From assembly GCA_000004985.1 (NCBI GenBank), contig GG738856.1: a stretch of 64,000 nt of DNA; one strand, 5' to 3'. Below the pieces are notes generated by a model. That model ran no database searches and had not been told where the DNA came from. It saw only the letters and a program-made list of their open reading frames with translations. Origin of the DNA: Naegleria gruberi. Its lineage: Eukaryota. Positions 7,865 to 57,778 of the stretch are shown in pieces (the stretch's first letter is position 1; every line of letters starts with the position of its first letter). Both the position numbers and the translations under genes were made by a program.

Positions 7865-8373
7865 CTATAAGCAAGGAGCAAAAAATACTTAAAGGCTTTG
7901 GAATGCAGTTGTGACAGTTTGTGTAGACATCATCGCGGCCTTAATATGAGCATGGATTACCTTAACGGGAGCGGTTTTGAGCATTAAGATTATGCGCAAC
8001 CATACAATGAACTTGTGTGTAACGTTGAAATGCACCTCTTGGTTCCTAGTAACGGATCAGCTAATTTAAGTTGTTGATTCTTCTACTTCCTTAATATAAG
8101 CTTCATTCTAATAAGCAATAGATGTAATATATTCATGTAAGTGGACCTTGTTTGACAATGAGAGACTTTTGTCCATGAAAAACGCGGAAAGCTCAAACCT
8201 TGGTGTATAATGCCTCAATTTTTCACTGAGTTGGTCCATCAAAATATTGACATTAAGGAAGATTGAGTTCGAATCCACAATGCAAACAAAGGAAACCAAA
8301 TTAAAGAACTTGGGTTGATCTTTGTAATTATCATCATTGAGCAATCTATTTTTACCAATTCAGAAAAAATACA

Positions 8374-9000
8374 ATGAACGAGAGAAACAAGGGCAGATTT
8401 GGCGTAAAAACCAATCAAACACTCAAGTTTAGTCATCAATTAAATGTAGAAAGAGAGAAGGGATGTATATTTGAATGGCAAGATGTCTCGGGACTCTACG
8501 GAAGACAACATGTAGTCTCTCATTCACTTGATAAACATAGAAGATGGGAATTGGTCCCAGAAGATGGTGATCAAGAAACCTCTTCTTCTTCTTCGCAATT
8601 CGAAGAGAAACAAGAGAGAAAGGAAAAGAACAAGGATGACAAGAGAGAGGACTTTCAGAGAAAGACTGATAAAAGTAAACATACTAAACGTTTGGAGAGA
8701 AAGGAACAAAACAAACAAGCAGCAATTTTGGAAAAGCAAAAGGAATCCCAGGCTCAAACTCAGCCACCAGAACACCAACAAGATGATGAAAAAGTTGTTA
8801 AAATTTACACATCAGGTTCTCAAATTAGAGGTAATTTGACTGCTGACAAGGCTCCGGATTTGAATATTTATGTTCCTGAGAATGAAGGTGTTAGAATGAA
8901 GAAGGGACAAAATAGACATCGTGAAAAGTATATTTACGGTGGAGATGTTGAACCTAGAAGAGAAAAGAAGGAACAATTTGTGAAGAGTATTTTTTTGTAA
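8374..9000 (+). CDS. Hypothetical highly charged (K/E/R-rich) protein, probably nuclear
   Basis: The 208-aa ORF starts at ATG and includes a charged stretch KEKNKDDKREDFQRKTDKSKHTKRLERKEQNK. No family is recognised. Confidence 0.45.
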   Translation: MNERNKGRFGVKTNQTLKFSHQLNVEREKGCIFEWQDVSGLYGRQHVVSHSLDKHRRWELVPEDGDQETSSSSSQFEEKQERKEKNKDDKREDFQRKTDKSKHTKRLERKEQNKQAAILEKQKESQAQTQPPEHQQDDEKVVKIYTSGSQIRGNLTADKAPDLNIYVPENEGVRMKKGQNRHREKYIYGGDVEPRREKKEQFVKSIFL

Positions 9001-9045
9001 TCAATTAATTAGATAATATTACAATAATTATTATAGAGTATTCTA

Positions 9046-9990
9046 CTAGCAAAGAATACACTTTTTATCTTTCTTTCGATGGCTAGTATGAGTTTCAAAG
9101 CTTTTTATAACTTGAACGAGTCTGTGATATCTAATTAGAATACTGAAGGCATTGGAAACTGTTTCATTGTGTGCAGCGGATGCCATGATAATGGGACAAT
9201 ACTTTAGTTTCGGATTTCTTGTGAAAATTTCATAAACATCCTTCAAGTTAAATTGATATGCTGAAGAATCAACATCAACCTTATTCACAACAATGACATA
9301 GGATTTGTACATTTTCTTCTCCTTAAAATTTGATTTTAGAACCTCCTCTAGCTCTGTAAGAGATTGTCTATCATTTATCGAACAAACTAACATGAAACAC
9401 TCTCCAAATTTATATTCCATTCCAAAAGAGAAAGAATCCTCAATAACTAATCTCGTAGGATAATCATCAACAATGGCATTCTTCCATGTAGTTTCCTCAA
9501 TAGTTGGATCTATCTTTACTCCATCAAAATAGTTCATGACATATTGAACTGTCAGAGCTGTCTTTCCAACATTTGCTATTCCACCAACGAATATTTTGAA
9601 ATCAGCTTGTCCGTAATAATTCTTATTATTTGATTCCTTTTCAAGTTGCAAACTCTTATAATTCTCCTTAAACTTGTGCATTAATTGAGCGTATCGACTT
9701 CTGTTACTCATTGTTGATGGCCATGGTATTTCTTCATCTTGTTTTGCCAATACTTCCTCTGTCCATTCCCGATGAGAGAGTCTTGCCCAACCCATCACTA
9801 AATACCTCCAATAACCATCCTGTAAATATTGATCAATTGGAGAGTCTTTCTTGAATGAGAGAGCCATCGAACAAGCTGCCTTACTTCTCATAGTTTCACC
9901 TTCCTTGTATTTAAAATTCAAAGGCTCTTGATTCAGACCACAATAATTCAAAATGATAATAATTAATTCATCGGGCAATCTGTTCGTCAT
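9046..9990 (-). CDS. F-box-like + Ras-like small GTPase with C-terminal CaaX (CILC)
   Basis: The N-terminus LPDELIIIILNYCGL is F-box-like. The GTPase has a P-loop GGIANVGKT, a G4 motif VVNKVD and a G5 motif SAAH. It ends in KKCILC. Confidence 0.65.
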   Translation of the reverse strand: MTNRLPDELIIIILNYCGLNQEPLNFKYKEGETMRSKAACSMALSFKKDSPIDQYLQDGYWRYLVMGWARLSHREWTEEVLAKQDEEIPWPSTMSNRSRYAQLMHKFKENYKSLQLEKESNNKNYYGQADFKIFVGGIANVGKTALTVQYVMNYFDGVKIDPTIEETTWKNAIVDDYPTRLVIEDSFSFGMEYKFGECFMLVCSINDRQSLTELEEVLKSNFKEKKMYKSYVIVVNKVDVDSSAYQFNLKDVYEIFTRNPKLKYCPIIMASAAHNETVSNAFSILIRYHRLVQVIKSFETHTSHRKKDKKCILC

Positions 9991-10168
9991 ATTGTATCAA
10001 AGTTAATTAAATCCTTATATTTAAATAAATTAATAATAATTATATAATATCAAATTAGACAATTAATAGTTTCATTTTTTAAAGTTCATACAACAACAAA
10101 TGATTTGAGATGTGTATTAATTATCTTGATACATTTAATCTTCAATAATTAATATTACAAAAAACAAC

Positions 10169-11451
10169 ATGAAGAGAAGCAGGTTCGGAATATCTTCTTC
10201 ACCAACTTCACTTTCCGAAGAAGAACAAGAAGAACAAAAACACACCAATCTTGGTAATGATGATGAAGAATTTCAACTAGTAACTTTGTCTTCTCCTTCC
10301 AATGAATATGAATCAAAACAAAAGAAGGCTAAATATGATACCAATGAATTAATTAATATTACTCATGATGATTATAATTATAATAATATTACAAGAGTAA
10401 TTCTAATTGATTTGATGGAAATATTAAATACAAATCATCATCAATTAATTAATAATTCAAATAATTCACAAATGGAAGAAATTAAATTCCTCTTCAACAA
10501 ATTAAGGAGGAAAATGAATGGTGGTGATTTTGTAGAACGTGCCTTCTCAACAAACTTTCATCACTCGAGGACAATTATTGGAATGGAGAATGAAGAAGAG
10601 GAAAAGTTTACATTGTGAAAATTTGTTACAATTCGAAATTGGTATTTGTGAGTGGAACAGATGAATCAAAATTAGTGGTCTATAGTTTGGATGATTACAA
10701 ATTCATTAAAACTATTGAATTGGAAACAATGCCAACTAATTTATGTATTGAAGAATGGGATAAATATTCGAATGATATTATCATTTCTGGAAATAATACT
10801 CATGTTTACAAGTATAGTTTAGAGGAATGTATGAAATCAAAACCGAAACCATTGTGGATTTGTGATAAGATTAATTCACCAAATGGAATAATATCTGTCA
10901 GTGATAGGAATAATTCAAACGAAAATTATAGAAAAGAGACCTCTCTTCTCTATGTTTGTGATATGTTTACTGAATTGATTAGCATTGTCAAATCACAAAC
11001 AGGACAAGTCATTGGAAATATATCTCTGCTAAGTGAAATGATTAATGTATCCTGTCCATGGAGTATTGGAATGAATAATTTGGGACAATTCATAATTAGT
11101 GGTCTACAAAACTCTAGCAAACATATTATTGAAATAATTGAGAGACAATTCGATCAAAAAAAGAATCAATACGAGTGGAAATCTATTAAAGTCATTGAGA
11201 ACGAGGAAGACAAGTTAAAATATCCTTTCGGACTTGTGGTAGATAGTGTATCTTTGAATATCATTGTATGTGATAGTTTGAATCACAGATTAATGGTATT
11301 CAAACAAGATGGAACTCTGTTAAAAGTATTTGGATCGAAAGGAAGGGAAACTTTTCAATTATCAACACCTATGGGTCTCTGTATTAACAAATTGAATGGA
11401 GAATTACTCGTGGCAGATTCAGAAAATCATCGAATATTATGTTACAAATAA
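10169..11451 (+). CDS. Acidic N-terminal region + NHL-repeat (beta-propeller) protein; proposed two-exon model
   Basis: ORF 10169-10618 and ORF 10615-11451 are in different frames. A 47-nt GTTTAC...GTGAG candidate intron (10606-10652) joins ...MENEEEEK to NGTDESKLVVYSL. The second part has NHL-type repeats (CDSLNHRLMVF, VADSENHRILCY). The ORF-track start of the second ORF is GTG. Confidence 0.45.
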
Positions 11452-11527
11452 GTGATATTTAATGTACATTTTCTGAATTCAGAAAAATAGATTATTAGAA
11501 TAGATAGACTATAGAATAGGCACATAT

Positions 11528-12547
11528 TTAATGTAAGAGACGAGTCAAGTGTTTCATTCCCTTCACATACTTCACTCCTTCTTCCCCTATTCTGTTGAAA
11601 CTAATATCAAGAAGTCTCAATTGTTTCATTTCACTAATAGATTTGGCACCTTCAGGACCAATTCTATTTCCATCAATTCTAAGATCAGTCAAGTTTGGCA
11701 TTTGACTAATAGCCTTTGCTCCCTCATCTCCAATTTCATTATAACAAATATTGAGTGTGGTTAATTTATCTAGTTCACTTATAAAAATTGCTCCTTCTGA
11801 CCTTAGAGAATTAGTATAGGCTTTCAGATAAGTCAATTGCTTCATTTGGCTAATGGATTTTGCACCTTCAGCACCCAAATTATTTCCACAAATGTCAAGT
11901 TTAGTTAAATTTTTCATTTCACTGATACTTTTGATTCCTTCTTGATCTATATTACTGGAACTGATATTGAGGAACGTTAAATGATCCATGCCACTAATTG
12001 ATTTTGCACCTTCTGCGCAGAGATAATTTGCACTAATATCAAGTTCAGTCAATTTAGTCATTCCACTAATTAATTTTGCACCTTCTGTACCAATTTGACT
12101 CGAGTCAATGTATAGACTAGTTAATTGCTTGAATTCACTGACGATCTTTGCTCCTTGCAACCCAATTTCATTTCCGCCAACACAAAGTTTAGTCAAATTT
12201 CGCATTAGGCCAACAAGCTCCAAATACTTAATATCAAACACTTCCTCTACGGAAATAAATTTCAGAGATGTAAAACTCTCCAAAAATTGACTTTTCCTAA
12301 CAGCATTGAATTTGCTATCGGTAATGTTTTTGAATTCAATTGAAAGTTTTGCACGTTCATTGATCACATTTAAAAATTGCTTTGAAATGAGGGAACACTT
12401 GTACAAGATGAATTTTGGATTTTCAATATAGGATATTATTTCAAAGCAAACATCATCAGAAAATATTTCCTTCTTGCCGAGTTCGGTTTGCTGAGACAAA
12501 GGGGTTTCAACAAGTTCACTCATTTTTTTTGAGATGTCAAATTTCAT
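11528..12547 (-). CDS. F-box-like + ribonuclease-inhibitor-type LRR protein
   Basis: The N-terminus is ...EIFSDDVCFEIISYIENPKFILYKCSLISKQF. It is followed by about ten GNEIGxEGAKxIS LRR units. Confidence 0.7.
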   Translation of the reverse strand: MKFDISKKMSELVETPLSQQTELGKKEIFSDDVCFEIISYIENPKFILYKCSLISKQFLNVINERAKLSIEFKNITDSKFNAVRKSQFLESFTSLKFISVEEVFDIKYLELVGLMRNLTKLCVGGNEIGLQGAKIVSEFKQLTSLYIDSSQIGTEGAKLISGMTKLTELDISANYLCAEGAKSISGMDHLTFLNISSSNIDQEGIKSISEMKNLTKLDICGNNLGAEGAKSISQMKQLTYLKAYTNSLRSEGAIFISELDKLTTLNICYNEIGDEGAKAISQMPNLTDLRIDGNRIGPEGAKSISEMKQLRLLDISFNRIGEEGVKYVKGMKHLTRLLH

Positions 12548-12705
12548 GGAAGGTCATTTTTCTATAGAAGTATGGTATTGATCCAGAGCTTAATATCTCA
12601 ATGAATACTTGATAAAATCTCACGAAAAAAGAGAATATCGTAGAATAACATGTCGAGATTATGATGTACAAAATTTAAGTAATGGTATTAAAAAATCGTT
12701 TGAAT

Positions 12706-12711
12706 AAAAAA
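12706..12711 (-). terminator. Pol III T-run downstream of tRNA-Gly (T6 on minus strand)
   Basis: The plus-strand aaaaaa at 12706-12711 lies 8 nt past the tRNA 3' end on the minus strand. Confidence 0.5.
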
Positions 12712-12718
12712 TAATTTC

Positions 12719-12789
12719 TGCGTCGACCGGGAATTGAACCCGGGTCACGGCGATGGCAACGCCGTATTCTACCACTAAACCATCGACGC
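12719..12789 (-). tRNA. tRNA-Gly (anticodon GCC)
   Basis: Reverse complement: GCGTCGATGGTTTAGTGGTAGAATACGGCGTTGCCATCGCCGTGACCCGGGTTCAATTCCCGGTCGACGCA. The anticodon stem CGGCG/CGCCG encloses loop TTGCCAT. Confidence 0.85.
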
Positions 12790-12950
12790 TTCTTATTATG
12801 CATCAATTGTATGTCACTGTGAAAGTATTATTAAAGTTCGGAAATATCTTTTGGGCAATGAATTTGAATTATTTGTGAAATATTCATTTTCGATTAATTT
12901 TAAACAATCCACTTGATATTTCAAAAATTCAATATATTTACTATTTAAAT

Positions 12951-14013
12951 TTAAGCAGTAACATTGAACAAGGCATGAGTTTCAGCCAAAATTCTGCTGT
13001 TTGGATGCTTAGAACCGCATTCACCTTCACAAGCAGCAGCAACAAATTCGTAAGTACCAACTCCCCAAGAGACTAGAATTGAAAATTAATAATTGTCAAA
13101 TATCATAAATACATACTGTTGTTGTTTGGATCATCTTGAGCTTGGATTTGGATTTGAATTTCAAAAGTACCTGGTTGGAAACCTTCAGCAAGCAATTCTC
13201 CACCAGAAATATCACCAGTGACTGGACCATTACTAATATATTTGATTAATTGTAACTGTTAATCAAAATTACTTACACTTCGAAAGCAAGTTCACCAGTA
13301 CCAGTTTGATTGTAGACTCTCAATTGAGAAACAGCAGTGAAAGTAGTACCCTTTGGAGCAGATTGTGGAACAACTCTAGTATTGAAGAATTGAGCACAAG
13401 TTGGGAGCTTGCAGTTGTGAACTGGACAGATACCAACTAATTGACAACCATAGATAGCATCCAAATCAGCCTTCTTGATCAAGTTAATGAATTCTTCAAC
13501 ACCCAAATAATCACAGACCAAGTTACAGGCAGCAATAGTGAGGGAACCAAAGTTGGACAAGTATGAGCACAAGACACCACAACTTCCTATTGTTTTTGTA
13601 TCAAAAAAGATTGTGTGAAAAGAATTGACAATTCTCAGTAAACTGTTCATGTGAAAAAACTTACCAATAACACCAGAGTTCAAGATAACGTTCAACAATT
13701 GGTTAATAGTTTGATCCAACAATTGAATACACATTGGACACAAGGAGAAACCAGCCTTTGGCAAGGTAACCTTGGCACCAGTTTGCTTGACGGAGAAATT
13801 CAACAACTTTTGAGTCAATTGTTCATCCTTCAAAATATTTTCACGGATTTCATTCTTCAATTGTTGGAAAGTAGTTGGTTGGTGATGATTACGAATAGCC
13901 ATACAGAATGGTGTAACGTAAATTGCCAAAATCATGGCAACCAAGAGGATTTGAGTAATCTTCATCTTAGTGTTTTTGTTTTTTTTTTGAATCAAAATTG
14001 TTTTCCTTGCCAC
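12951..14013 (-). CDS. Saposin-like (amoebapore/naegleriapore-type SAPLIP) precursor with conserved C-terminal Cys-containing extension; 3-4 exons
   Basis: A signal peptide (MKITQILLVAMILAIYVTPFCMA) is followed by LCPMCIQLLDQTINQLLNVIL...LVCDYLGVEEFINLIKKADLDAIYGCQLVGICP, which matches the amoebapore pattern LCNLCTGLINTLENLL...LCTKVLDFGIDKLIQLIED...AICAKI. Introns lie at about 13563-13662, 13208-13270 (GTAAGT after ...AFEV) and 13087-13130 (GTATGT...TCTAG). The terminal exon is ...SWGVGTYEFVAAACEGECGSKHPNSRILAETHALFNVTA with stop at 12951. A paralog is at 47984-49106. Confidence 0.6.
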
Positions 14014-14829
14014 AATTCGCTAATCGCCCCGCCATCTCGCTGCGATTTTGCCTCTGCATTACGGTTGGCGTTGATTACGGCCAGTGTTCTGTTGGGTCAT
14101 TTTGGAATCATTGGCTTGTTCTCTTCCTTGTCTTCTTCGACAAAAGCTTTGTTGTGTTTGGTTGGAAGAAGATAGAAAGTGGTGGCACGTTCGATAAATG
14201 GAGATTTTCAGGTTAGATCTATCAACAGAAGAAGAGATGAAAGGAAGAGGATCGTATTTGAGAAGAGAGGTGGACTCTGTGAATGTATGGGTAATTCGGA
14301 GTCTTTGGAAACAATGTTGCAGCAAGGAAGAAGTTACGGAACCATTCACATGTGATTTGATTGGTGGAATATTGAAAGATGACACTTATTCCGGTCAATA
14401 TTTTGTATTCAATAAAAATAATGAATGGCGCCATTGGTTTCTACTGCTTGCCTTTACAGAAATTGCTCCATGACAAAACTCTTGTTCTGAAATATTTGGA
14501 ATTCGCTTGTGTGAATTTGAAATATTTCACATCAGTGATATCCAAGATATTTTCCATATTCAAGGTGGTTTTTAAATATCAGAAATATTTGAATTTATCC
14601 CTTTCCCGCCCTCAACAAAAAATCTTCATCCTTATTTGTGCGTTCAAGAGAAGATTCAAATATATTTGAGTTGATTTTTTTCACACAAAGAAGATGTGAA
14701 AGAGATTTTTTTTCTTCAAGTTTATTGGATTTAAGATGGAGTTTGGTTTTTTGTTTAATATTCGAAAGTGAGGAAGAAAAAGCAGGAATTTCGAATAATA
14801 GAAAAGAAATTCATCACTTTCAAGAATTA

Positions 14830-15285
14830 TTTAAAAAAATGAATTATACACCATAGCCATTCCTCCTCCAATTCCTGCAATGTTCTCTTCTGATGATTTT
14901 GTTATGAAATTCTATCCTATTTCCATGAGGAAAATGATGGAAAATTTATTCTACTGAATTGTTCGTTTATTTCCAAGCAGTGGATGAAGAAATTCGGACA
15001 GATTTCAATTCAATATTTGAAATAGATTCTCTACTTCATTGGCAAGGTGTTAATTTGCAAAAAGTTGAATGTGAAAAAATTCGGAAAGATTTCAATTAAT
15101 ATTCTAGAAAAAATCAATTTTTGGAATGTTTTGGGAAATTTGGAATTTATTTGAAAGATTTTGCAAAGTTTCATGAAATAATTAAAATGATGAAAAATTT
15201 AAAAAGTCTTTCTATTGGAAATGATTCTATTGGAGAGGAGGATTTGAAATTTATTGGAGAAATGAATCATTTAACTGAACTTGTT
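14830..15285 (+). pseudogene. Degenerate duplicated fragment of the 5' end (F-box region + first LRRs) of the F-box/LRR gene at 18245-18670
   Basis: It is about 85-90% identical to 18245-18670 (…gaaattctatcctatttccatgaggaaaatgatggaaaatttattctact…gaaatgaatcatttaactgaacttg). Indels break the frame, and similarity ends abruptly at 15285. Confidence 0.6.
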
Positions 15286-16260
15286 TGACTGACGATAAAG
15301 AATGTTGGACCCAGTTAGCTATGCATGAATTCCGAGTTAGATTGGAGTTAGATGATAAACATCTTCATCTAAAGGACATCTGCATACCATCCATGGAATT
15401 TGGTGCTCTCACTTTGAAAGTATCATGCTTTGTGTTTATATTCATAATGTTTCTAATAACAAATTGAGATATTACAACCGAATGAAGACCTCTTTTACTC
15501 AATATATATTGTTTGGATGTGTTACTATCTACTATAAGGAGCTTATTGGTGGTATTTCTATGGATTTAAAGACAAAGAATTTCGAAACTGTCAATTATCC
15601 CTTTGGATGAATTTACTCACTCATAAAAAATTGAAACCAAGATGGACCTAATGGCTAATTGGTAATATCAATTAAAAGGGTCATATTATCACAACACATA
15701 CTAAACACTATCTAGTGTATGATGTCAAACGTTTTTTTTGATGATTGGGCAGCAATCATGAAAAAGAGCTTGATCAAAATTTGGCAAGCATCCAGAGAAT
15801 ACAAATAATCCTTACACTAATGAATAAATTGCACAACTGATTCAAATGTCACAATTTTTATATTTTACTATGGACCATTTTCCTGAATTCATATTTCGAA
15901 TGCAAAACCCAGGAACTGAACCACCTTATTGGTGAATCTGCATGGAACCTGCAATTGAAGGATACAAATCTTTATTGAATAAAACTCGATAATTCCGAGA
16001 AATTGATTGGTGGTTGGATATGATATAGTGTTTTGTCTCTTCTTTGAGGTTTGTTTCTTGTTAACTCTACTTGAGATTCGAATAACTATTTGAGCATCAC
16101 AAATTTGGAATTGAGGTTGCTTATTAAAGGTATCAGACCATTGATAATTCTTTGTTAATTTACAATCGGAAACAACTCCATTCCTCATAAACATTCAACA
16201 TATTTTAATTTTTATTTCATCAATGGAAAATAAACATATTTCCTTAACAATTCAAAAAAA

Positions 16261-18150
16261 ATGAACAACACTAAGCGTACCCCTCGGTTTGTAAAGCCGT
16301 TAGCTTTGGTTAATAAAATTGAAGATCAAGGCTCCTCCAACAACAAGCGTTCCTTTGAAAACCCTGTAGGCGAAATGTATTCGGAGGCGACACTATTTGA
16401 TTGTGAATCAACAGACTTATTTTCATGTGTTTCATTGCCACCTAAAAGACGGTTGGTAGAATCGTCATTGCTTAATACTTTTGAAGATACAGATTCTTTT
16501 GACAGACCTATTATTGAGAAATCGTTAGAAATAGTACCTAATACCTCCATTGAAATTAAATGTAATATAGGAAACATACCATCTCTGGACATGAACAGAA
16601 CAGTCGATCTACTTTCTGATAAAACAATAACAAATGATGATACAAGTGCAAGCAACTTGAGAATAGATATAATATCAAAAATCAGTTTGGATACTGTTAT
16701 TTACCGTGATAATATGAATAATAGAAAAAATGTGTTGAATAATTACACTCAGCTCCTTCAGTTCGTTAATGATTGCCCTAATCTTAATGTTCTTGGAAAT
16801 ACGAAAGCTGCCTTTCACATTCAAGTAGAAGGGTATGCCAGAACTGGAAAGACAACTCTTTCATCAGTAGTTCTTCCTTATTTACTATCAAAATACAAAT
16901 ACAATACCTATTCGAAATATAGAACAATACTAATCAATACCAGAAATTTTGAAAGGACTTGTTTATTTGGTGATTACATTCTACAAACCTTGCAATTCGA
17001 ACTGAAGGTTCCACCACCACAATTAAAACCTTTCACACAGGCTTACTCATTTTGGCCTAATTGGTTAGCAAAACATTTAGATCCTCAAACTTTTTATTTT
17101 TTTTGCTTAGATGATATTCAATTATTGAACGAAAATGAAATGCATGAAGCAAAATGCTTTTTCAAATCAGGTTTTAATCCTGAGAATATGGTTGCCATTG
17201 TTACTGGTTCTTCACAGTCAATGTTCTTGAAGAGAATTGCTTCTGTGAGGTCGAATGGTTTTTCCTTAAATGAATGTGTTAGCAAATATGTTATTCCGAA
17301 AGAGATCACATTCAATGAAATTCAAGAAACAGTAACAGCTTTAAAATCAATTAATCAAAATGGATCCCTTACCGTTGATCATATCAAGCAATTGAAAATT
17401 GTTTTTCGAGAAATTCTTCCATCTCATCTATCAATACTTCATCATGAAAAGGAGTATTCAGTAGAAAAATTGGTTAAGGAATACCAAGGAATTTACTTGA
17501 AGGATTTTCCATTTCTGAAAAGTTATGAATTAACTGAATCTGACAAACGAATAATCAAATTTCTACTAAAGGGAGATTTTTCACATTTGGAAGGAAATCA
17601 AAGAATTGCTCCTGAGGGACTTTTTTTCTATATCGAGAAAAAAGAAGATGGCGAGTACAGATTAAGGGATCTAGTGTTGGACAAGATGTTACACTTTTGT
17701 TTCCAAATAGATCCCACATTCGGTAAGGTTATAAGAAAGGATAATCTATCTGAAACTTTTTATTATGATTTCTTTCTTTTACTTCCTGTCTCAGAATTTG
17801 GCAAAACACTTTCTAAAAATATATTCTTTCTTAATAGGTTGACTTATCCATCCTTCACTCCAAATACTAAGCAAATCAGTAGAATGCGTAATGCTTTACT
17901 AAAAGAAGCAAAATATCATTTCACAATTGACAAAACATTCCATTCAATTATTATTGGAGTGAGAAATCATGTGCTAAACAACATTCCCAATTCATCAGTT
18001 GTTTGCAACTTGTTTTTGACTCATTGGTTCAATAATTCCATTTCACAATTTCATTCATTTCTGGAAGACCTCATAGAAGTCAATTCAATCAACCTTAAAG
18101 CTTGTAAAGCACAAAAAAACAAATCAAAAAAAAATAGGAAATGGAAATGA
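16261..18150 (+). CDS. Hypothetical AAA+-like P-loop NTPase
   Basis: The 629-aa ORF has a Walker A motif GYARTGKTTL and a Walker B-like motif FYFFCLDDIQLL about 90 aa downstream. A sensor-1-like IVTGSS follows. Confidence 0.45.
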   Translation: MNNTKRTPRFVKPLALVNKIEDQGSSNNKRSFENPVGEMYSEATLFDCESTDLFSCVSLPPKRRLVESSLLNTFEDTDSFDRPIIEKSLEIVPNTSIEIKCNIGNIPSLDMNRTVDLLSDKTITNDDTSASNLRIDIISKISLDTVIYRDNMNNRKNVLNNYTQLLQFVNDCPNLNVLGNTKAAFHIQVEGYARTGKTTLSSVVLPYLLSKYKYNTYSKYRTILINTRNFERTCLFGDYILQTLQFELKVPPPQLKPFTQAYSFWPNWLAKHLDPQTFYFFCLDDIQLLNENEMHEAKCFFKSGFNPENMVAIVTGSSQSMFLKRIASVRSNGFSLNECVSKYVIPKEITFNEIQETVTALKSINQNGSLTVDHIKQLKIVFREILPSHLSILHHEKEYSVEKLVKEYQGIYLKDFPFLKSYELTESDKRIIKFLLKGDFSHLEGNQRIAPEGLFFYIEKKEDGEYRLRDLVLDKMLHFCFQIDPTFGKVIRKDNLSETFYYDFFLLLPVSEFGKTLSKNIFFLNRLTYPSFTPNTKQISRMRNALLKEAKYHFTIDKTFHSIIIGVRNHVLNNIPNSSVVCNLFLTHWFNNSISQFHSFLEDLIEVNSINLKACKAQKNKSKKNRKWK

Positions 18151-50556: not shown

Positions 50557-51675
50557 ATGGGAACAAAGCCATCACGTACCTTGATGCCAATACGAACCAT
50601 CATTCAACAGAAATTAACTAAAAAAGTTCTATTACTCGGTACCTCCGATTCTGGTAAATCCACATTATTCCACATGTTGCAATTGATAACTTTCGGCCAT
50701 AAAGTTGATGAAAAGTTTGAAAATAATTTGCGAATTGTTTGCTCATGGGTTGTTGAGCGAATTTGGGAAGTGATGGGAGAGCAAGACCGAAATCACTTGA
50801 AAGATCTCATCAACCCAGAACTGAGATTAGTGTTCGAAACTGCACGAAATACTTGTTTAGCTACTGAATTGCAAAATAGAGATTGTTGTGAAATATTGGT
50901 CAATCTTTGGAAAATTCCATTCTTTAGAGAGTTTTACGAATCAGTGTGGAGTAGAGATGGAATCACAATGTACGAAAATGTCAAGGAATTAGTTTCAAGA
51001 ATTGAAAACAGGAAAATCTTTTCTCCATATTCATTAATTCATTGTAGGACGGCTGGAATGTCGACAGACGAACCAATCAGAAACAACATTGAACTGATCG
51101 ATGTTGGAGGACAGAGAAAAGAAAGAAGGAAATGGATTTATTGCTTTGAAGATGTTCATACAGTGATTTATATGGTTTCTCTTTCAGAATTTAATCAATT
51201 TTTATTTGAAGATAACATTACTAATAGAATGGAAGAATCACTATCCTTATTTAGTGAGGTTATGAATTCGAGATGGCTTGGTCCTGCTCGTAACATAATT
51301 CTCTTTGTAAAACCAGATGTTCTATGGAAAAAATTGGAAAATGGAGTGAAATATGATAGAGAACTCAATACTAATATTATAGCAGAGCTAGACAGAATTC
51401 CTGATCAGTATCTTAAACTGGTTATCAACTCGATCATTTCAGAATATTTCAAGAAAATAGATAGAACTACAATTGATTCCTATCATATTGTGAATACAAT
51501 CTCAGAAGAGGATATCAAATCTGTTTGTGAAATAATCTTTGGAGAGAGAATAGATCAAAAAACAACCTTCATCTCACCATGTATCATTCCTGACAACAAT
51601 AGAATGATACGGTGCCTCTTCAATAATTATCTGAATGAAAAATTGACAGATATACAAATCATTACTTCCGACTGA
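50557..51675 (+). CDS. Heterotrimeric G-protein alpha subunit (divergent)
   Basis: MGTKPS (Gly2) at the N-terminus. The P-loop is VLLLGTSDSGKST. ...IHCRTAGMSTDE...IDVGGQRKERRKWIYCFEDVHTVIYMVSLSEFNQ...NRMEESLSLFSEVMNSRWLGPARNIILFVKPD aligns with G-alpha DVGGQRSERKKWIHCFE...NRMHES..LF...IILFLNKKD. Confidence 0.75.
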   Translation: MGTKPSRTLMPIRTIIQQKLTKKVLLLGTSDSGKSTLFHMLQLITFGHKVDEKFENNLRIVCSWVVERIWEVMGEQDRNHLKDLINPELRLVFETARNTCLATELQNRDCCEILVNLWKIPFFREFYESVWSRDGITMYENVKELVSRIENRKIFSPYSLIHCRTAGMSTDEPIRNNIELIDVGGQRKERRKWIYCFEDVHTVIYMVSLSEFNQFLFEDNITNRMEESLSLFSEVMNSRWLGPARNIILFVKPDVLWKKLENGVKYDRELNTNIIAELDRIPDQYLKLVINSIISEYFKKIDRTTIDSYHIVNTISEEDIKSVCEIIFGERIDQKTTFISPCIIPDNNRMIRCLFNNYLNEKLTDIQIITSD

Positions 51676-51818: not shown

Positions 51819-53426
51819 TTAAAGAGTTGGATATTCTGCCTTATCATAACCATGAGGACGAGGAGGAATTAAGAATTGATTAACAGTTTGACTCATTTGA
51901 ACAACTGGTTTCAGATATTTTACAGGTTGATAACTGAATGGAGTTTCTTCAAAACAACCAAGATGTTCCAATAAACGTGGAGCTCTCTTAATCATTCCCA
52001 TCAATGACTTGGTTGCCAATGCAGCCATTGTATCAAAATGACGATATGGGACACCAAATTTCTCATTCAATTCCTTCATCTCATCAGCTGAATATTCACC
52101 AAGATCTTGAACCCAATCATTGTACTTGGTCAGAGAGGTTGTTACATGATAGGATCCTCCTTGTTTGGATCTTCTCCAAAGACCATCGAGAGCACCACAA
52201 GTTCCCATCACTCCACAGCAATAGTCTGAGATTGGTAAGAGTGGCAAGACTGGTTCATCCAATCCTAAGGCCTTTCCTTGTTTCCAAGCAAGACCAGAGA
52301 CACAATCAGCAATTTGTTGCCAACCAGATCTGTATGAAAGTGGACCATCATTTCCATAACAATTCTCAGAGACATAGACAATACCATAACCACGATCCTT
52401 TACCATCTCTGTTACTTGTTTGAATCCAAAACCTAATTTTTCCAAAGCTCCTGGTCTGTATCCTTGAACGAAAATATCACACTCCTTAATGAGCTCCCTC
52501 AGTTTTGATTTTCCTTCTTCAGTTTTCAAATCAATAAAACATGAATTTTGTCCAATATTATCCAATTGGAATGCACTTCCATCAGGACTGTGTGGTCCAA
52601 TAACTTTCAAAACTTGAGCTCCATATTCTGATAAATTACGACCAATGACAGGACCTGCAATAGCTCTCCCCAAACTCAAAACTTTAACACCATCAAGAAT
52701 ATTTCTTGTACCAGTAATTGGCTGAGGTTTTCCTTCTGAAATACTTTCAACTTCCCACAATGGCTTTGCATGAATGATTTGTCCGTGTTCACTTTCCAAA
52801 AATTCCTCTCTCGTCAAGCAAGTAACACCTGCTTGTTTGTATTGTTCATTTGAAACTTTCTCAATATCAGAAGAGTTCCATTCCAATACCTTTTCTTGAA
52901 TAAATGCAAATGCTTCAGCTGCATTGAGATTTTGATTATGTGGAATTCCCAACATGTCAAAAGTTGGTGTAGCATTCAAAGAACCATGCAAGTGATAGAA
53001 TTTACCATCCTTACATTTGTAAATATTGGTACTTGCAAATCGATATTCATTACTGAATGTATCATGATAATCAGTATTTGGTAAAATCTTCATAAGAGCT
53101 GGAGTGGCAGCAAACAGTACAGTATTCAAGTACATCAAGGCACGATCCAAATTGACTGTGACATTTTGCTCACCAAATCTTTCCTTACCAAGTAAATTTG
53201 CCAAACTTCCTTCAATTCCCTTCAGTACAGAAACTGCTTCTTGTTGTTTGACAGGACATGGAAGTATTGGTTCCACAAGTCCAATACTTGATTCAAATTT
53301 GACCTTCTCCAAGAGTTCAACCACCTCTTGATCAATTCCAACTGGTAAATCCTTACCGATCGATTCAACAATTGTTTTAATAGTCTCTTCAAGTCTTGCC
53401 ATTATAATAATACACAGATCACACAC
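51819..53426 (-). CDS. CoA-transferase family III (CaiB/BaiF-type) protein with about 230-aa N-terminal extension
   Basis: ILDGVKVLSLGRAIAGPVIGRNLSEYGAQVLKVIGP matches the family III glycine-rich N-terminal motif. DIFVQGYRPGALEKLGFG and NDGPLSYRSGWQQIADCVSGL are also typical. Confidence 0.7.
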   Translation of the reverse strand: MCDLCIIIMARLEETIKTIVESIGKDLPVGIDQEVVELLEKVKFESSIGLVEPILPCPVKQQEAVSVLKGIEGSLANLLGKERFGEQNVTVNLDRALMYLNTVLFAATPALMKILPNTDYHDTFSNEYRFASTNIYKCKDGKFYHLHGSLNATPTFDMLGIPHNQNLNAAEAFAFIQEKVLEWNSSDIEKVSNEQYKQAGVTCLTREEFLESEHGQIIHAKPLWEVESISEGKPQPITGTRNILDGVKVLSLGRAIAGPVIGRNLSEYGAQVLKVIGPHSPDGSAFQLDNIGQNSCFIDLKTEEGKSKLRELIKECDIFVQGYRPGALEKLGFGFKQVTEMVKDRGYGIVYVSENCYGNDGPLSYRSGWQQIADCVSGLAWKQGKALGLDEPVLPLLPISDYCCGVMGTCGALDGLWRRSKQGGSYHVTTSLTKYNDWVQDLGEYSADEMKELNEKFGVPYRHFDTMAALATKSLMGMIKRAPRLLEHLGCFEETPFSYQPVKYLKPVVQMSQTVNQFLIPPRPHGYDKAEYPTL

Positions 53427-53915
53427 AACAATTATTCAACTCAAAAAGCCAATGATGACAATTAATGTTAATTTTTTTTTAATTCATTTCCCGACGACGC
53501 ACAGTTAAACCTTTTTAAATCAATTACCGCCTCATCAAAAGAAATGGAAATATAACGCTTTTGCTGATCAATATGATGACGATGATTGGAACTGAATGGT
53601 TTTGATAATATGTGCTGGTAGTAGCATTGTAAGGCGTAGCCTGCTTTAAATAATTTTCATTTTTTTTGTAAGCGGGATTGAACGCAGCGGTAAAGACTTT
53701 CCCGCCAAGCCCGAAATTGTGCTATTTGCTGATTTTGAGTGGGAACCCGAAAATGTTAGATTGATCCGAAGCCCAGTTGGTATTTTGAATAATTAGAAGG
53801 AAGGTTGTGACAAATTTTCAAAATAAAAACAATCAAATTGATCTCTGTAAAGTGTTTGATCAGTTTTTGAAGAGTATTTGTAAAATTGTAAAGTAATTGT
53901 GAAGAATTTGAGAAA
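53427..53915. promoter_or_regulatory. Putative bidirectional promoter between divergent CoA-transferase and AtuA-like genes
   Basis: A 489-bp AT-rich intergenic spacer separates the two start codons at 53426 (minus) and 53916 (plus). Confidence 0.3.
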
Positions 53916-55721
53916 ATGAAGAGACCTCTAAATATTGCAGCTTGTTCTGGAGTAACTGGTGACAATCCGAATGCAATTTATGATCAAGCAGTTGGTGATC
54001 ATCCAATCGATGTCATTATTGGTGATTATTTGGCTGAGGTTAATATTGCATGGCATGCATTGGCTAGAAAAACAGATCCATCCAAAGGATACGATGAGGG
54101 TTTCGTTGAGAATTTGAAACCAGCATTGCCAGTTTTAAAGGAGAAAGGTATCAAGGTTGTTGTGAATGCTGGGGCCTTGAATCCTTCAGGTTTAGTCCAA
54201 GAATTGAGAAAGGTCTTGAATGAGCAAAAGATTGAAATGAATATTGCTTGGATTGAAGGTGATGACATTGTAAGAAAGATTCCTGAATTAATTGAAACTG
54301 GAAATGAGTTTATTCACTTGGATAATCCAAATGTCAAGTTATCCGAATGGAGATGCACTCCAATTTCTGCAAATGCTTATTTGGGTGCTTGGGGAATTGC
54401 CAAAGCATTGAATGAAGGAGCAGACATTGTCATTTGTCCAAGAGTTACTGATGCTTCACTTGTGGTTGGATGTGGTATTTGGTGGCATGATTGGAAAAAA
54501 GATCAATTTGACATTTTGGCAGGTGCTGTCATGACAGGACATTTAATTGAATGCAGTGCTTATATTACAGGAGGAAATTATGCAGGTTTTAGAAATGTCA
54601 AGAATAATGTCGATTTACCATTTCCAATTGTTGAACTAGCTCATGATGGCAGTTGTGTCATTACAAAACATTCAAACACAAATGGTGAAATCTCACTTGG
54701 AACTGTCACTACCCAATTCCTATATGAAATTCAAGGACCTATCTATTTAAACCCTGATGTAACCTGTCATCTCAGTACTGCTCAAATTACAGAAATTGCT
54801 CCTGACAGAGTTGCATTGACAGGTATTAAGGGAAGTGCTCCATCCAAGCAAACTAAAGTTGCCATCTGTGGAATTGGTGGCTATCAAGTTGAATTCTCTG
54901 TTTACATGACAAGTCCAAACGTCCAAGAAAAGGAAGATCATTTCAGAAAGCAAATGATGAGGATGGTCAACCCAGAAAAATTCCTAGTTCTTGATGTGAC
55001 CAGATATGGAGGACAAGTTCAAGATCCAAAATCTCAAGCAGAGGCAACTTGTCAAATTCGTGTTTTTGCTCAAGCTATTGATGCCGAAACAGTTTCGTTT
55101 AAGAATTTCACTGGACGAATCTTGTCAACTGGAATGCAAGGATTTGGAGGTTTCCACTTGAATATGGATTTCAGAACTGCTCAACCAAAACCTTTCATTG
55201 AATATTATCCAGCACTTCTTGATGTATCCTCTCTAGAACACACAGTTTTTGTAAACGACAAGGAATTCATTGTAAACGATTTGGAAATTCCAAGACAAGA
55301 AATTTCCTGCTCAGTCAACCAACTTCCAACTCTCGAATTTGACCCTTCTAAATATCCAGAAACAATCAGGGCTCCACTAGGAAGAGTAGCCCTTGCTCGT
55401 TCTGGAGATAAAGGAGGAAACATGAATGTTGGAATCTATGTCCTTCATGACCAAGCATGGCCATGGCTTAAATCCTTCCTCAACGAGGAAACTTTTAGAA
55501 AATTGCTTGGAAATGATAATTCTCCCGACTATATTATCGAAAGATGTGAATTTGAAAATTTGAGAGCTGTTCACTTTAAAGTGATTGGAATTTTGGGAAA
55601 GGGAGTTTCAAGTACTGCAAGAATGGATTCATTCGCCAAATCTTGGGGTGAGTTTTTGAGAGCTCGACATGTGGACATTCCATTGGAAATTTATGAAAAT
55701 TGCAGTGTAGATTTATTGTAA
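53916..55721 (+). CDS. AtuA-like protein (DUF1446 N-terminal domain; acyclic-terpene-utilisation AtuA family)
   Basis: The 601-aa N-terminus NIAACSGVTGDNPNAIYDQAVGDHPIDVIIGDYLAEVNIAWHALARKTDPSKGYDEGFVENLKPALPVLKEKGIKVVVNAGALNP matches the family signature (SGFWGDRP...YLVGDYLAE...KDP..GY...GIKVVSNAGG.NP). Confidence 0.55.
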   Translation: MKRPLNIAACSGVTGDNPNAIYDQAVGDHPIDVIIGDYLAEVNIAWHALARKTDPSKGYDEGFVENLKPALPVLKEKGIKVVVNAGALNPSGLVQELRKVLNEQKIEMNIAWIEGDDIVRKIPELIETGNEFIHLDNPNVKLSEWRCTPISANAYLGAWGIAKALNEGADIVICPRVTDASLVVGCGIWWHDWKKDQFDILAGAVMTGHLIECSAYITGGNYAGFRNVKNNVDLPFPIVELAHDGSCVITKHSNTNGEISLGTVTTQFLYEIQGPIYLNPDVTCHLSTAQITEIAPDRVALTGIKGSAPSKQTKVAICGIGGYQVEFSVYMTSPNVQEKEDHFRKQMMRMVNPEKFLVLDVTRYGGQVQDPKSQAEATCQIRVFAQAIDAETVSFKNFTGRILSTGMQGFGGFHLNMDFRTAQPKPFIEYYPALLDVSSLEHTVFVNDKEFIVNDLEIPRQEISCSVNQLPTLEFDPSKYPETIRAPLGRVALARSGDKGGNMNVGIYVLHDQAWPWLKSFLNEETFRKLLGNDNSPDYIIERCEFENLRAVHFKVIGILGKGVSSTARMDSFAKSWGEFLRARHVDIPLEIYENCSVDLL

Positions 55722-55751: not shown

Positions 55752-56681
55752 ATGTTGGAAAAAATGCAACAAGAAGAAGAAAAATCAAAGAATTGTTTTG
55801 CTCTCTTTTCTGATCATGATGAAACAATTTGTTCTACCAAGCCGAGTCCACAATTAGCACCTCCCGATCATCAATTTTTCAATAAATTTGGGAAAATCAA
55901 GATGGTTGTATGTCGAGTAAATAATTGTTTTGTAGTTTCGGAACACGATGAAGTATTTGTTGGTAGTAAGAGCGGGTGGCAACGATTGGGAACAAGTTTT
56001 AAATTTACCAATGAGAAAATAGTGCATATCAGTGCAAGTTATCATATTCTTGTTATGATTTTACAATCTGGCAATACTACAAATATTGGGACAAGAGTAT
56101 TTTGGTGTTTTATTAATACTAATGGAGGTGGTAATAAATTTGGAGAGACAATTACTGAATGTACAGAGTTGGTGGATCATTTCTCCAATAAGGAAGGACC
56201 TCAAACTACTACTTGGTATCATTTGCAAGATTTTGAATTGATGGATGGGGAATATGTTAATTATACTTCATGTGCTGCATATGCCTGTACATTTATTACA
56301 TCCCATGGAAGACTTTTTGCATGTGGTAGTAATCAATTTGGTGAAATAGCTCAACCAACAATTAGTTTTAGAACAAGTAATGTTATTTGCAAAGTTAATC
56401 TTTGTAATCTTGATCCTTTGAATGAATGTAAAAATCCATTCTTTGTCAAATCAGTGAATGGGGATCACAATATTATTGCCTTGACAAAGGATCATAATAT
56501 TTTCTATTGTGGATATCAAATGGAAGCTGGAGGTAAAGATCTACCAATGATGAGACAATTGAAACGACATGACACAATGGAACCTTATGAATACAGGAAT
56601 ATCAAGAAAAAAGACGAGTTCAAGCACTGTTTTATGCCATGCAAGGGCTTGTGGAGCAACGATTTGGAATGGAATCTTTGA
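55752..56681 (+). CDS. Hypothetical protein with RCC1-like repeats
   Basis: VFVGSKSGWQRLGTS, LFACGSNQFGEIAQP and IFYCGYQMEAGG resemble RCC1 blade motifs. Confidence 0.4.
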   Translation: MLEKMQQEEEKSKNCFALFSDHDETICSTKPSPQLAPPDHQFFNKFGKIKMVVCRVNNCFVVSEHDEVFVGSKSGWQRLGTSFKFTNEKIVHISASYHILVMILQSGNTTNIGTRVFWCFINTNGGGNKFGETITECTELVDHFSNKEGPQTTTWYHLQDFELMDGEYVNYTSCAAYACTFITSHGRLFACGSNQFGEIAQPTISFRTSNVICKVNLCNLDPLNECKNPFFVKSVNGDHNIIALTKDHNIFYCGYQMEAGGKDLPMMRQLKRHDTMEPYEYRNIKKKDEFKHCFMPCKGLWSNDLEWNL

Positions 56682-57778
56682 GGTCAATTGAGAAATGCCG
56701 AGAATTGCTCTCGAAAAATTTTGACAATTTCACAAATTATACAGTGGCTTGCACTTATAAATTACTGAGTCGATATGAAATGGGATATGGAAGGGTTAAT
56801 TATTCGAGATTCTATCTGAATTGTGTCAAGTCCTATTTTGATGGAAATGAGCCAAAGAATTCATTTGAGAGGAATATGAAACAATTGATTAGAACAGCTG
56901 AAATTGTGGACTCACATAATGAGATGGGTCATTTATTTGTCAAGAATTTGCCAGAAATATTTGAAGCAATTACCAATCTTCCATTACCAGATGAAATTAT
57001 TAAGGTATTGCAGCAAGACTCCGTCAACTCAACTAATTATTTGGATCAAATGAAAATTATTGAAATAATTGTAAATCACACTGTCCAATTCTCTAAAGAA
57101 AAGACAAATTCCTATAAGACAGAAGAACAGAGAAAGTTTATTGACAACTATCTTGAGAATTTCAAATCCATCTTTTTGAATGGTTTGAGCATTTCAATGC
57201 TTATGCGCTCTGGACAGGGAAATGAACTAATTGAAGAAGCTGCTTTGAAAGTTACCTATTCATCAGAGACTGAATACTTTCCCTTGCTTCCTATATTTGT
57301 TCTGCCATATGTTGCTTTGGCCAGTCGTTTCCATTTACAAATAGTGAAACAGATCGAAAATGGGCAAACACAACAGGAAAGCAAGAAGAATCCAACAAGT
57401 GTAGATTATTACGAAATTCTAGCCAAAGATTTACTAGCTTTGAGAGTGCTTGCAAAGAGATACAAACGAGTTGAATTTTCTTATGGAACCATGATGAATG
57501 AAATGGACGAAATTTTAAAGAAGAAAGTTGAACAATCATCTCAACAGAATGTGGAATTCAGCACAACTTCTGACGTGGCCACGCCACAAACTACTCACGT
57601 GGAGAGTTCTTGTCTAATTGATGAACAGCCACTTTCCTTTTTATTGGGATTTGTTAATGAGGCAGCTCAACACTCACAACCATTCGAAAGTTCAAACCAA
57701 CACATTGCAGAAAATCCATTCCACTTTCTTTCTGAGGATTTTTCACAAATGCTCTCTCCCGATTTTTCATTCTTTTAG
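56639..57778 (+). CDS. Hypothetical alpha-helical protein (may be the 3' part of the RCC1-like gene after a 1-nt frame change)
   Basis: The frame is open from 56588 and overlaps the end of the previous ORF by about 90 nt in a different frame. No family is recognised. Confidence 0.3.
   Translation: MQGLVEQRFGMESLRSIEKCRELLSKNFDNFTNYTVACTYKLLSRYEMGYGRVNYSRFYLNCVKSYFDGNEPKNSFERNMKQLIRTAEIVDSHNEMGHLFVKNLPEIFEAITNLPLPDEIIKVLQQDSVNSTNYLDQMKIIEIIVNHTVQFSKEKTNSYKTEEQRKFIDNYLENFKSIFLNGLSISMLMRSGQGNELIEEAALKVTYSSETEYFPLLPIFVLPYVALASRFHLQIVKQIENGQTQQESKKNPTSVDYYEILAKDLLALRVLAKRYKRVEFSYGTMMNEMDEILKKKVEQSSQQNVEFSTTSDVATPQTTHVESSCLIDEQPLSFLLGFVNEAAQHSQPFESSNQHIAENPFHFLSEDFSQMLSPDFSFF

Follow-up and report, generated by a model that had tools for sequence, protein, structure and literature searches.

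Why does an amoeba carry a coenzyme A (CoA)-transferase gene back to back with a gene of the AtuA family? The question is raised by a locus in Naegleria gruberi, within a 64,000-nucleotide stretch of contig GG738856.1 (NCBI GenBank assembly GCA_000004985.1), hereafter the window. There, a CoA-transferase gene on the minus strand and an AtuA-like gene on the plus strand are arranged head-to-head and divergently. A first-pass annotation made from the sequence alone had described this divergent pair across a 489-bp spacer, and both open reading frames (ORFs) were found where it had placed them. The transferase ORF (51819..53426) comprises 535 aa when counted from a GTG codon as in the ORF listing; from the first ATG (53402) it encodes 527 aa, the same length as a 99%-identical database protein, and the spacer is then 513 bp rather than the 489 bp measured from the GTG-ORF boundary. 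The AtuA-family ORF runs uninterrupted over 601 aa. The family assignments also held. The Pfam profile CoA_transf_3 (PF02515, CaiB/BaiF) matched the transferase with E 8e-39 (134.2 bits versus a cut-off of 23.3), and the AtuA (DUF1446) profile matched its neighbour with E 2.5e-157. The answer that we favour, and consider moderately probable, is that the two genes form a stand-alone catabolic module of actinobacteria-like ancestry, which would act in two steps, loading of CoA onto a substrate followed by C-C bond cleavage by the AtuA-like protein.

The pairing was conserved outside Naegleria, a possibility that the annotation had raised. In Aspergillus niger the AtuA gene lies head-to-head with a gene for a 570-aa CoA_transf_3 protein, and the basidiomycete Desarmillaria ectypa has the same AtuA/transferase layout. 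When JGI metagenome contigs were scanned with the transferase alignment, 80 loci were obtained, roughly 36 of them with sufficient upstream sequence, and an AtuA homologue was located directly upstream on the opposite strand in 13 of these 36 or so. The 13 pair-bearing contigs are eukaryotic, their other genes including those for casein kinase II beta, V-ATPase subunit a, SPRY and GNAT proteins. All eukaryotic pairs were divergent (16/16, the window included), and the spacers of the fungal pairs, about 450-1060 bp, were comparable to that of Naegleria. Adjacency was found in at least five separate eukaryotic lineages in addition to Naegleria, while all other neighbours differ; no conserved third gene was detected in fungi, where the flanks are housekeeping genes.

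For bacteria, the best 80 AtuA loci from 185,579 species genomes were surveyed. A family III transferase gene directly adjoined AtuA on the same strand in seven of the 80, and these belonged to actinobacteria, namely Gordonia, two Amycolatopsis, two Actinomycetospora, Pseudonocardia and a Sporichthyaceae metagenome-assembled genome. Adjacency occurred in 7 of the 13 loci whose AtuA was at least 41% identical to that of Naegleria and in none of the 67 loci with lower identity (Fisher p = 5e-7). AtuA and the transferase were the only gene clusters common to the seven actinobacterial loci; the flanks varied (MFS, LysR, GntR, P450, luciferase-like, AMP-binding and MpaB genes) and contained no conserved third gene. 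The pairing is not due to chance, and the AtuA/transferase pair is conserved across three lineages. A candidate AtuA-CoA-transferase fusion in Pseudonocardia kujensis (1064 aa stop-to-stop) was rejected as a high-GC artefact, its parts lying in different frames.

The transferase carries an N-terminal region of 230 aa that the first-pass annotation had called unexplained. Such a region does exist: of the 366 profile positions of CoA_transf_3 only 1-197 were matched, by aa 244-434 of the ORF of 535 aa, and about 235 aa at the N-terminus of the N. gruberi protein are without a Pfam match. It is no longer unexplained, for it is a permuted piece of the CoA-transferase fold itself. The segment is conserved in fungal homologues (95-99% coverage) and has invariant residues, among them a Y-x-H-L-H-G-S motif. 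With hhalign, aa 65-206 mapped to canonical positions 187-340 of 424, which comprise the helix after the conserved Asp and the small domain (E 2e-4, with a weak four-sequence template profile). The C-terminal part (aa 235-450) mapped to canonical positions 17-240 with E 1e-27, and no small-domain match to canonical sequences was obtained downstream of it. The N-terminal extension of the Actinomycetospora protein, used alone, matched CoA_transf_3 positions 133-323 above the gathering score (29.0 bits, E 8e-7), and two fungal extensions matched positions 166-325 and 174-324.

Expressed in CoA_transf_3 profile positions, the linear order of the transferase is 133-325, then 1-197, then a short C-terminal tail. 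This order makes the protein a circular permutant of the family III CoA-transferases, and the junction is duplicated, as expected if a tandem duplication was followed by trimming of both ends. Its three-dimensional fold is that of family III; the canonical linear order (N-terminal part of the large domain, small domain, C-terminal part of the large domain) is not kept, and the full structure model aligns sequentially over only about 260 residues. In bacteria, the transferases adjacent to AtuA (about 490 aa) are already permuted. One point speaks against a permutation: the N. gruberi segment alone gave no significant Pfam or PDB sequence match, and the link is made via its homologues and the structure. 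The same point favours the idea that the N-terminal 230 aa are an unrelated add-on domain for targeting, regulation or oligomerisation, which we consider very improbable. A profile of the segment retrieved 806 clusters at 50% identity among 1.84 billion representatives, and the segment was located at the N-terminus in the 150 best-scoring representatives listed. Those checked by Pfam consisted of the segment and CoA_transf_3 with no further domain fused, and among the longest representatives no fusion of the N-terminal domain with another domain was found. An internal repeat within the transferase was also considered and rejected, the hhalign comparison of its N-terminal with its C-terminal half not being significant. 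In the literature we found no description of a permuted family III CoA-transferase or of this Naegleria gene pair.

The permutation leaves the catalytic half recognizable. Its best solved relative was the succinate-hydroxymethylglutarate CoA-transferase SUGCT (9br6, E 6e-23), and Asp393, which aligns to the Asp of the SUGCT MTD motif, was invariant in 60 of 60 aligned sequences, canonical outgroups included. In Frc and related enzymes, the family III active-site Asp forms an acyl-aspartyl anhydride. Asp393 is presumed to be this catalytic residue, retained in the permuted enzyme. NCBIfam models for oxalate, formyl, glutarate, mesaconate and carnitine transferases gave only sub-threshold scores, far below every equivalog cut-off, and therefore no substrate was called from homology. 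Canonical family III enzymes (SUGCT, Frc, CaiB, YfdE, mesaconyl-CoA transferase and MCR/AMACR) are unpermuted and about 360-430 aa long, whereas in the permuted subfamily the proteins comprise about 490 aa (bacteria) or 527-580 aa (eukaryotes), with the small-domain segment first.

Several further observations were made on this subfamily. Its members are mislabelled by automated annotation and appear in public records as alpha-methylacyl-CoA racemase, formyl-CoA transferase, carnitine dehydratase, succinyl-CoA-L-malate CoA-transferase subunit or even 'CheY-like superfamily'. The sub-threshold NCBIfam scores of the window protein back none of these names. The bacterial proteins of Actinomycetospora and of Alphaproteobacteria (Phenylobacterium, Rhizorhabdus and Novosphingobium) share 64-69% identity. 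This is unusually high across phyla and suggests a recent transfer of the bacterial transferase. The alphaproteobacterial genes are surrounded by P450, SDR, TetR and TonB-receptor genes, AtuA being absent. Two metagenome contigs with a GC content of 0.34, OBUW01000080.1 (75 kb) and OKKB01000031.1 (103 kb), encode a full-length transferase of this type, 37% identical to the window protein, without AtuA. The N. lovaniensis orthologue is annotated with 598 aa (10154-11913 of its locus) versus 527 aa in N. gruberi, and tblastn broke it into two segments approximately 100 bp apart near the N-terminus; the longer annotation may reflect an unspliced intron or a lineage-specific insertion.

The AtuA-like protein matched both the AtuA and the AtuA ferredoxin-like profile at full length. 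With fungal and actinobacterial members of the AtuA family it shared 41-47% identity across 98-100% of its length, the closest match outside N. gruberi being that of A. niger (47%), followed by Actinobacteria. Among the many residues invariant from Naegleria to Proteobacteria in the alignment were D37-E41, H209, E212, C213 and R495-G500. No solved structure or PDB sequence relative of AtuA was found. PTS1-like peroxisomal signals (SKL, ARL, GRL or GRI) form the C-terminus of several fungal AtuA paralogues, while the N. gruberi protein ends in VDLL and the transferase-paired A. niger protein in PWV, neither of which is PTS1-like. Paired and unpaired AtuA paralogues may reside in different compartments.

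The origin of the pair was addressed with neighbour-joining trees of both genes (100 bootstraps each). In the transferase tree, the proteins with the N-terminal extension formed a clade (bootstrap 90). Within it, the AtuA-adjacent actinobacterial proteins formed one subclade and the eukaryotic proteins another (100 each). The eukaryotic subclade comprised at least three fungal paralogue groups, one of which united the A. niger protein with most of the AtuA-paired fungal transferases (100). The two Naegleria transferases clustered together (100) as a deep branch, joined weakly (54) to a mostly unpaired fungal group. In the AtuA tree, eukaryotes were separated from bacteria with a bootstrap of 100, N. 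gruberi was sister to all sampled fungi (fungal clade 98), and the nearest bacterial group included the pair-bearing actinobacteria. The transferase and AtuA trees are congruent: in both, Naegleria and fungi formed one clade, and the pair-bearing actinobacteria were the nearest bacteria sampled. This fits the earlier hint of a bacterial-derived module and a transfer of the two genes as a unit. The trees were built by neighbour-joining only, and Naegleria is placed weakly among the fungal transferase paralogues, which tells against this scenario.

The locus itself is part of the amoeba genome. The pair is flanked by ordinary eukaryotic genes, encoding a G-alpha protein (50557-51675) and an RCC1-like protein (55752-56681), and the GC content and the GC content at third codon positions (GC3) of both genes fall within the spread of the other long ORFs of the window. 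A 'predicted protein' of Naegleria gruberi, encoded on a contig of 602 kb, was 100% identical to the AtuA-like protein. Since the flanks are eukaryotic and GC and GC3 are native, the locus is an integrated, native and compositionally ameliorated part of the genome and not contamination. It lies on a eukaryotic chromosome, its nearest relatives are outside the host lineage and its distribution is patchy, as characterizes a lateral acquisition.

Both genes could instead be ancient in eukaryotes, having been inherited vertically and lost in most lineages. The single eukaryotic clade in both trees, the placement of the N. gruberi AtuA as sister to the fungi rather than nested among them and the fully native composition are in line with this, but the named eukaryotic matches were only fungi and Naegleria, no other Naegleria AtuA was among the database matches listed, no synteny was found around the N. 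lovaniensis copy, and the nearest outgroup in both trees was a narrow actinobacterial set in which the two genes are adjacent. We therefore regard vertical inheritance as distinctly unlikely. Synteny between N. gruberi and N. lovaniensis had been considered on account of an RCC1-like neighbour in both and was rejected, only the transferase being shared within about 10 kb. For the preferred lateral origin, the simplest reading would be a single entry of an adjacent AtuA-transferase pair into a eukaryote from an actinobacterium-like donor. The pair would then have turned divergent and spread between the fungal and Naegleria lineages, with later paralogy and repeated uncoupling in fungi and loss of AtuA in the N. 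lovaniensis/N. fowleri branch. Independent acquisitions of the pair from related bacteria would be the alternative to a single entry, and both the donor and the direction of transfer are presumed.

As for function, the first-pass annotation had described the role of AtuA as unknown even in Pseudomonas, which is too strong. AtuA has been tentatively assigned as a hydroxyacyl-CoA:acetate lyase (PMC4847356), and cleavage of a tertiary-alcohol acyl-CoA by the AtuA-like ThnQ/ThnS has been reported, citing unpublished data (PMC12016498). For thnP, which adjoins these genes, the paper states that the product is a CoA-transferase directing CoA to the correct carboxyl group (PMC12016498). A DUF1446 gene also occurs in the methylaspartate/mesaconate clusters of enterobacteria (PMC4682846). 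In enterobacteria and Dictyoglomus it lies just downstream of the methylaspartate ammonia-lyase gene and is often mis-annotated as that enzyme (PMC4682846).

In the module that we propose, the transferase would first form the CoA thioester of a free carboxylic acid with acetyl- or succinyl-CoA as the donor. The acid would probably be a dicarboxylic acid with a 3-hydroxy-3-substituted (tertiary alcohol) centre. The AtuA-like enzyme would then split a C-C bond of the hydroxyacyl-CoA in the manner of HMG-CoA lyase, yielding 3-oxoacyl- or acetyl-CoA and a small acid that would enter central metabolism. Since a conserved third gene is lacking, these products are presumed to be central metabolites. 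In a cycle like that of citrate lyase, the acyl-CoA formed could act as the donor for the next round, and both genes would be co-regulated from the shared spacer. The substrate class, the lyase chemistry and the co-expression of the pair are features that we infer from gene context and the literature.

The closest known arrangement is thnP-thnQ-thnS of the anaerobic naphthalene (thn) operon in strains N47 and NaphS2 (PMC12016498, PMC6849830). As at the Naegleria locus, a CoA-transferase gene stands directly beside AtuA-like genes, a likeness of gene context. The thn substrate is a dicarboxylic acyl-CoA with a tertiary hydroxyl, on which the transferase sets the thioester and for which C-C cleavage by the AtuA-like proteins is reported. 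ThnQ and ThnS are two polypeptides, whereas Naegleria has one fused chain of 601 aa, and the thn genes belong to a large beta-oxidation-like operon of anaerobic Deltaproteobacteria, whereas the Naegleria pair stands alone. The acyclic terpene cluster atuABCDEFGH of Pseudomonas, the source of the protein name, encodes an AtuA of the same Pfam family. In contrast to that cluster, no geranyl-CoA carboxylase, AtuD/E or other atu genes were located near the Naegleria, fungal or actinobacterial pairs, the neighbours in Naegleria being the G-alpha and RCC1-like genes, and CoA activation in Pseudomonas is carried out by the synthetase AtuH and not by a family III transferase. The citrate and citramalate lyase cycles, and SUGCT together with HMG-CoA lyase, offer an analogy, as there too a hydroxy-dicarboxylate is first activated by CoA transfer and its thioester then split; the protein families of the citrate/citramalate lyase type systems are unrelated to those of the Naegleria pair, and no evidence of an acyl-carrier subunit or of CoA recycling was seen in the present analysis. 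The mesaconate pathway runs via citramalate, another tertiary-alcohol dicarboxylate.

A number of findings weigh against the proposed module, on the side of chemistry as well as of gene linkage. To our knowledge, no member of this AtuA/transferase clade has had its activity measured. For ThnQS, unpublished data are cited, and ThnP, which is annotated elsewhere as 'CoA-transferase/acetyl-CoA hydrolase', may not belong to family III. VdAtuA3, a fungal AtuA homologue, is reported to be a mitochondrial complex-I interactor and dispensable for citronellol use (PMC13399572). On such grounds the pair might be functionally coupled without AtuA being a C-C lyase: it could be a hydratase, an isomerase, a decarboxylase or, as the mitochondrial VdAtuA3 would suggest, a non-catalytic or regulatory partner. 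The reported binding of VdAtuA3 to a complex I subunit agrees with this, as do the lack of a solved structure or PDB sequence relative of AtuA and the tentative or unpublished status of the lyase activity. We nevertheless judge a non-lyase AtuA to be rather unlikely, since the lyase step is the sole step of the Atu and Thn pathways without another dedicated operon enzyme and AtuA-family genes lie among acyl-CoA enzymes in bacteria and fungi; the residues invariant between Naegleria and Proteobacteria also argue for catalysis.

As for linkage, both genes were found in loci where the partner is missing. Bacterial loci located from the transferase side were without AtuA within 8 kb in three of three cases (Phenylobacterium, Novosphingobium and Pseudonocardia endophytica), and therefore the claim was lowered from an obligate to a facultative linkage. 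N. lovaniensis has the transferase (57-62% identity) without an adjoining AtuA or any remnant of it, approximately 23 of the 36 eukaryotic metagenome loci lacked AtuA, and the Pyronema transferase was unpaired. The AtuA genes of Fonsecaea, Hymenopellis and Moniliophthora were likewise unpaired. The AtuA-transferase linkage is thus facultative, not obligate. Such solitary genes, the transferase in N. lovaniensis, Pyronema, the three bacteria and most eukaryotic metagenome loci, and AtuA in three fungi, would be accommodated if the two were neighbours by shared descent only, with a generalist transferase and an AtuA substrate supplied by other enzymes. We consider this unlikely, because the adjacency recurs in at least five eukaryotic lineages and Naegleria, always divergent, and in seven actinobacteria while all other neighbours change, because the bacterial adjacency is concentrated in one AtuA clade, and because a CoA ligase can replace the missing transferase beside AtuA.

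This replacement was seen in Colletotrichum truncatum, where AtuA lies head-to-head with an AMP-binding acyl-CoA ligase in place of the CoA-transferase, and in Saccharopolyspora AtuA is located among ligase, hydratase and acyl-CoA dehydrogenase genes. AtuA therefore repeatedly adjoins a CoA-activating enzyme. The recurring theme is AtuA beside a CoA-thioester-forming enzyme, the transferase with the N-terminal extension being one option that is favoured in one clade. In Colletotrichum truncatum the cluster (7614-16469 of the locus) continues from the ligase/AtuA pair with a MaoC dehydratase, two enoyl-CoA hydratases, an MFS transporter and an SDR, and looks like a fuller fungal catabolic cluster around an AtuA paralogue.

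AtuA/DUF1446 is a large family with thousands of matches in bacteria and fungi, and we know of no publication of its reaction with a purified protein. AtuA has been the weak link of the acyclic-terpene pathway, and ThnQS fill the corresponding step of anaerobic naphthalene degradation. A minimal two-gene module in three distant lineages would narrow the AtuA question to a substrate that a CoA-transferase can load and to products that are central metabolites, and since the N. gruberi genes are without introns and directly expressible, that question becomes directly testable. The finding varies on two known themes, the module that combines a CoA-transferase with an acyl-CoA lyase, and the family III transferase. 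The permuted subfamily, with about 800 clusters at 50% identity, is of interest for the interlocked-dimer fold, and the pair adds a probable example of a bacterial operon that has become a head-to-head eukaryotic pair, common to two eukaryotic supergroups. In a bolder and doubtful reading, the cassette would be self-sufficient, activating and then splitting a tertiary-alcohol dicarboxylic acid with recycling of the acyl-CoA. An early fungus or another eukaryote would have received it whole from an actinobacterium, after which it would have gained a bidirectional promoter and passed between fungi and the Naegleria lineage. If so, it would be the first tractable intron-free eukaryotic system for AtuA/DUF1446 chemistry and would contain the first circular permutant to be described for the family III CoA-transferase fold.

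The coordinates of the pair and of its parts are collected in the table.

Table. Features of the AtuA/CoA-transferase locus of N. gruberi (positions in the window; residues of the transferase counted from the first ATG)
Feature	Position	Strand	Remarks
Family III CoA-transferase coding sequence, circularly permuted	51819..53402	-	527 aa from first ATG, stop included, intron-free
CoA-transferase N-terminal extension, aa 1-234: displaced post-Rossmann helix copy and small domain	52701..53402	-	
CoA-transferase catalytic Rossmann-like half, aa 236-426	52125..52697	-	matches Pfam CoA_transf_3 positions 1-197
Asp393 codon, presumed catalytic, family III conserved Asp column	52224..52226	-	translation PISDYCC
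Shared divergent intergenic spacer, presumed bidirectional promoter region	53403..53915	.	513 bp, GC 0.33
AtuA-family protein coding sequence	53916..55721	+	601 aa, stop included, intron-free
AtuA (DUF1446) domain, aa 6-444	53931..55247	+	Pfam PF07287, E 2.5e-157, 524.6 bits
AtuA ferredoxin-like domain, aa 487-586, invariant ARSGDKGG motif	55374..55673	+	Pfam PF23544, E 2.4e-13, 50.8 bits

Next to the pair, the RCC1-like ORF and the ORF that follows it (56639-57778, no Pfam match) have 43 bp in common; both are on the plus strand but in different frames. The two ORFs (55752-57778 of the window) may be one gene split by a short intron or a frameshift.

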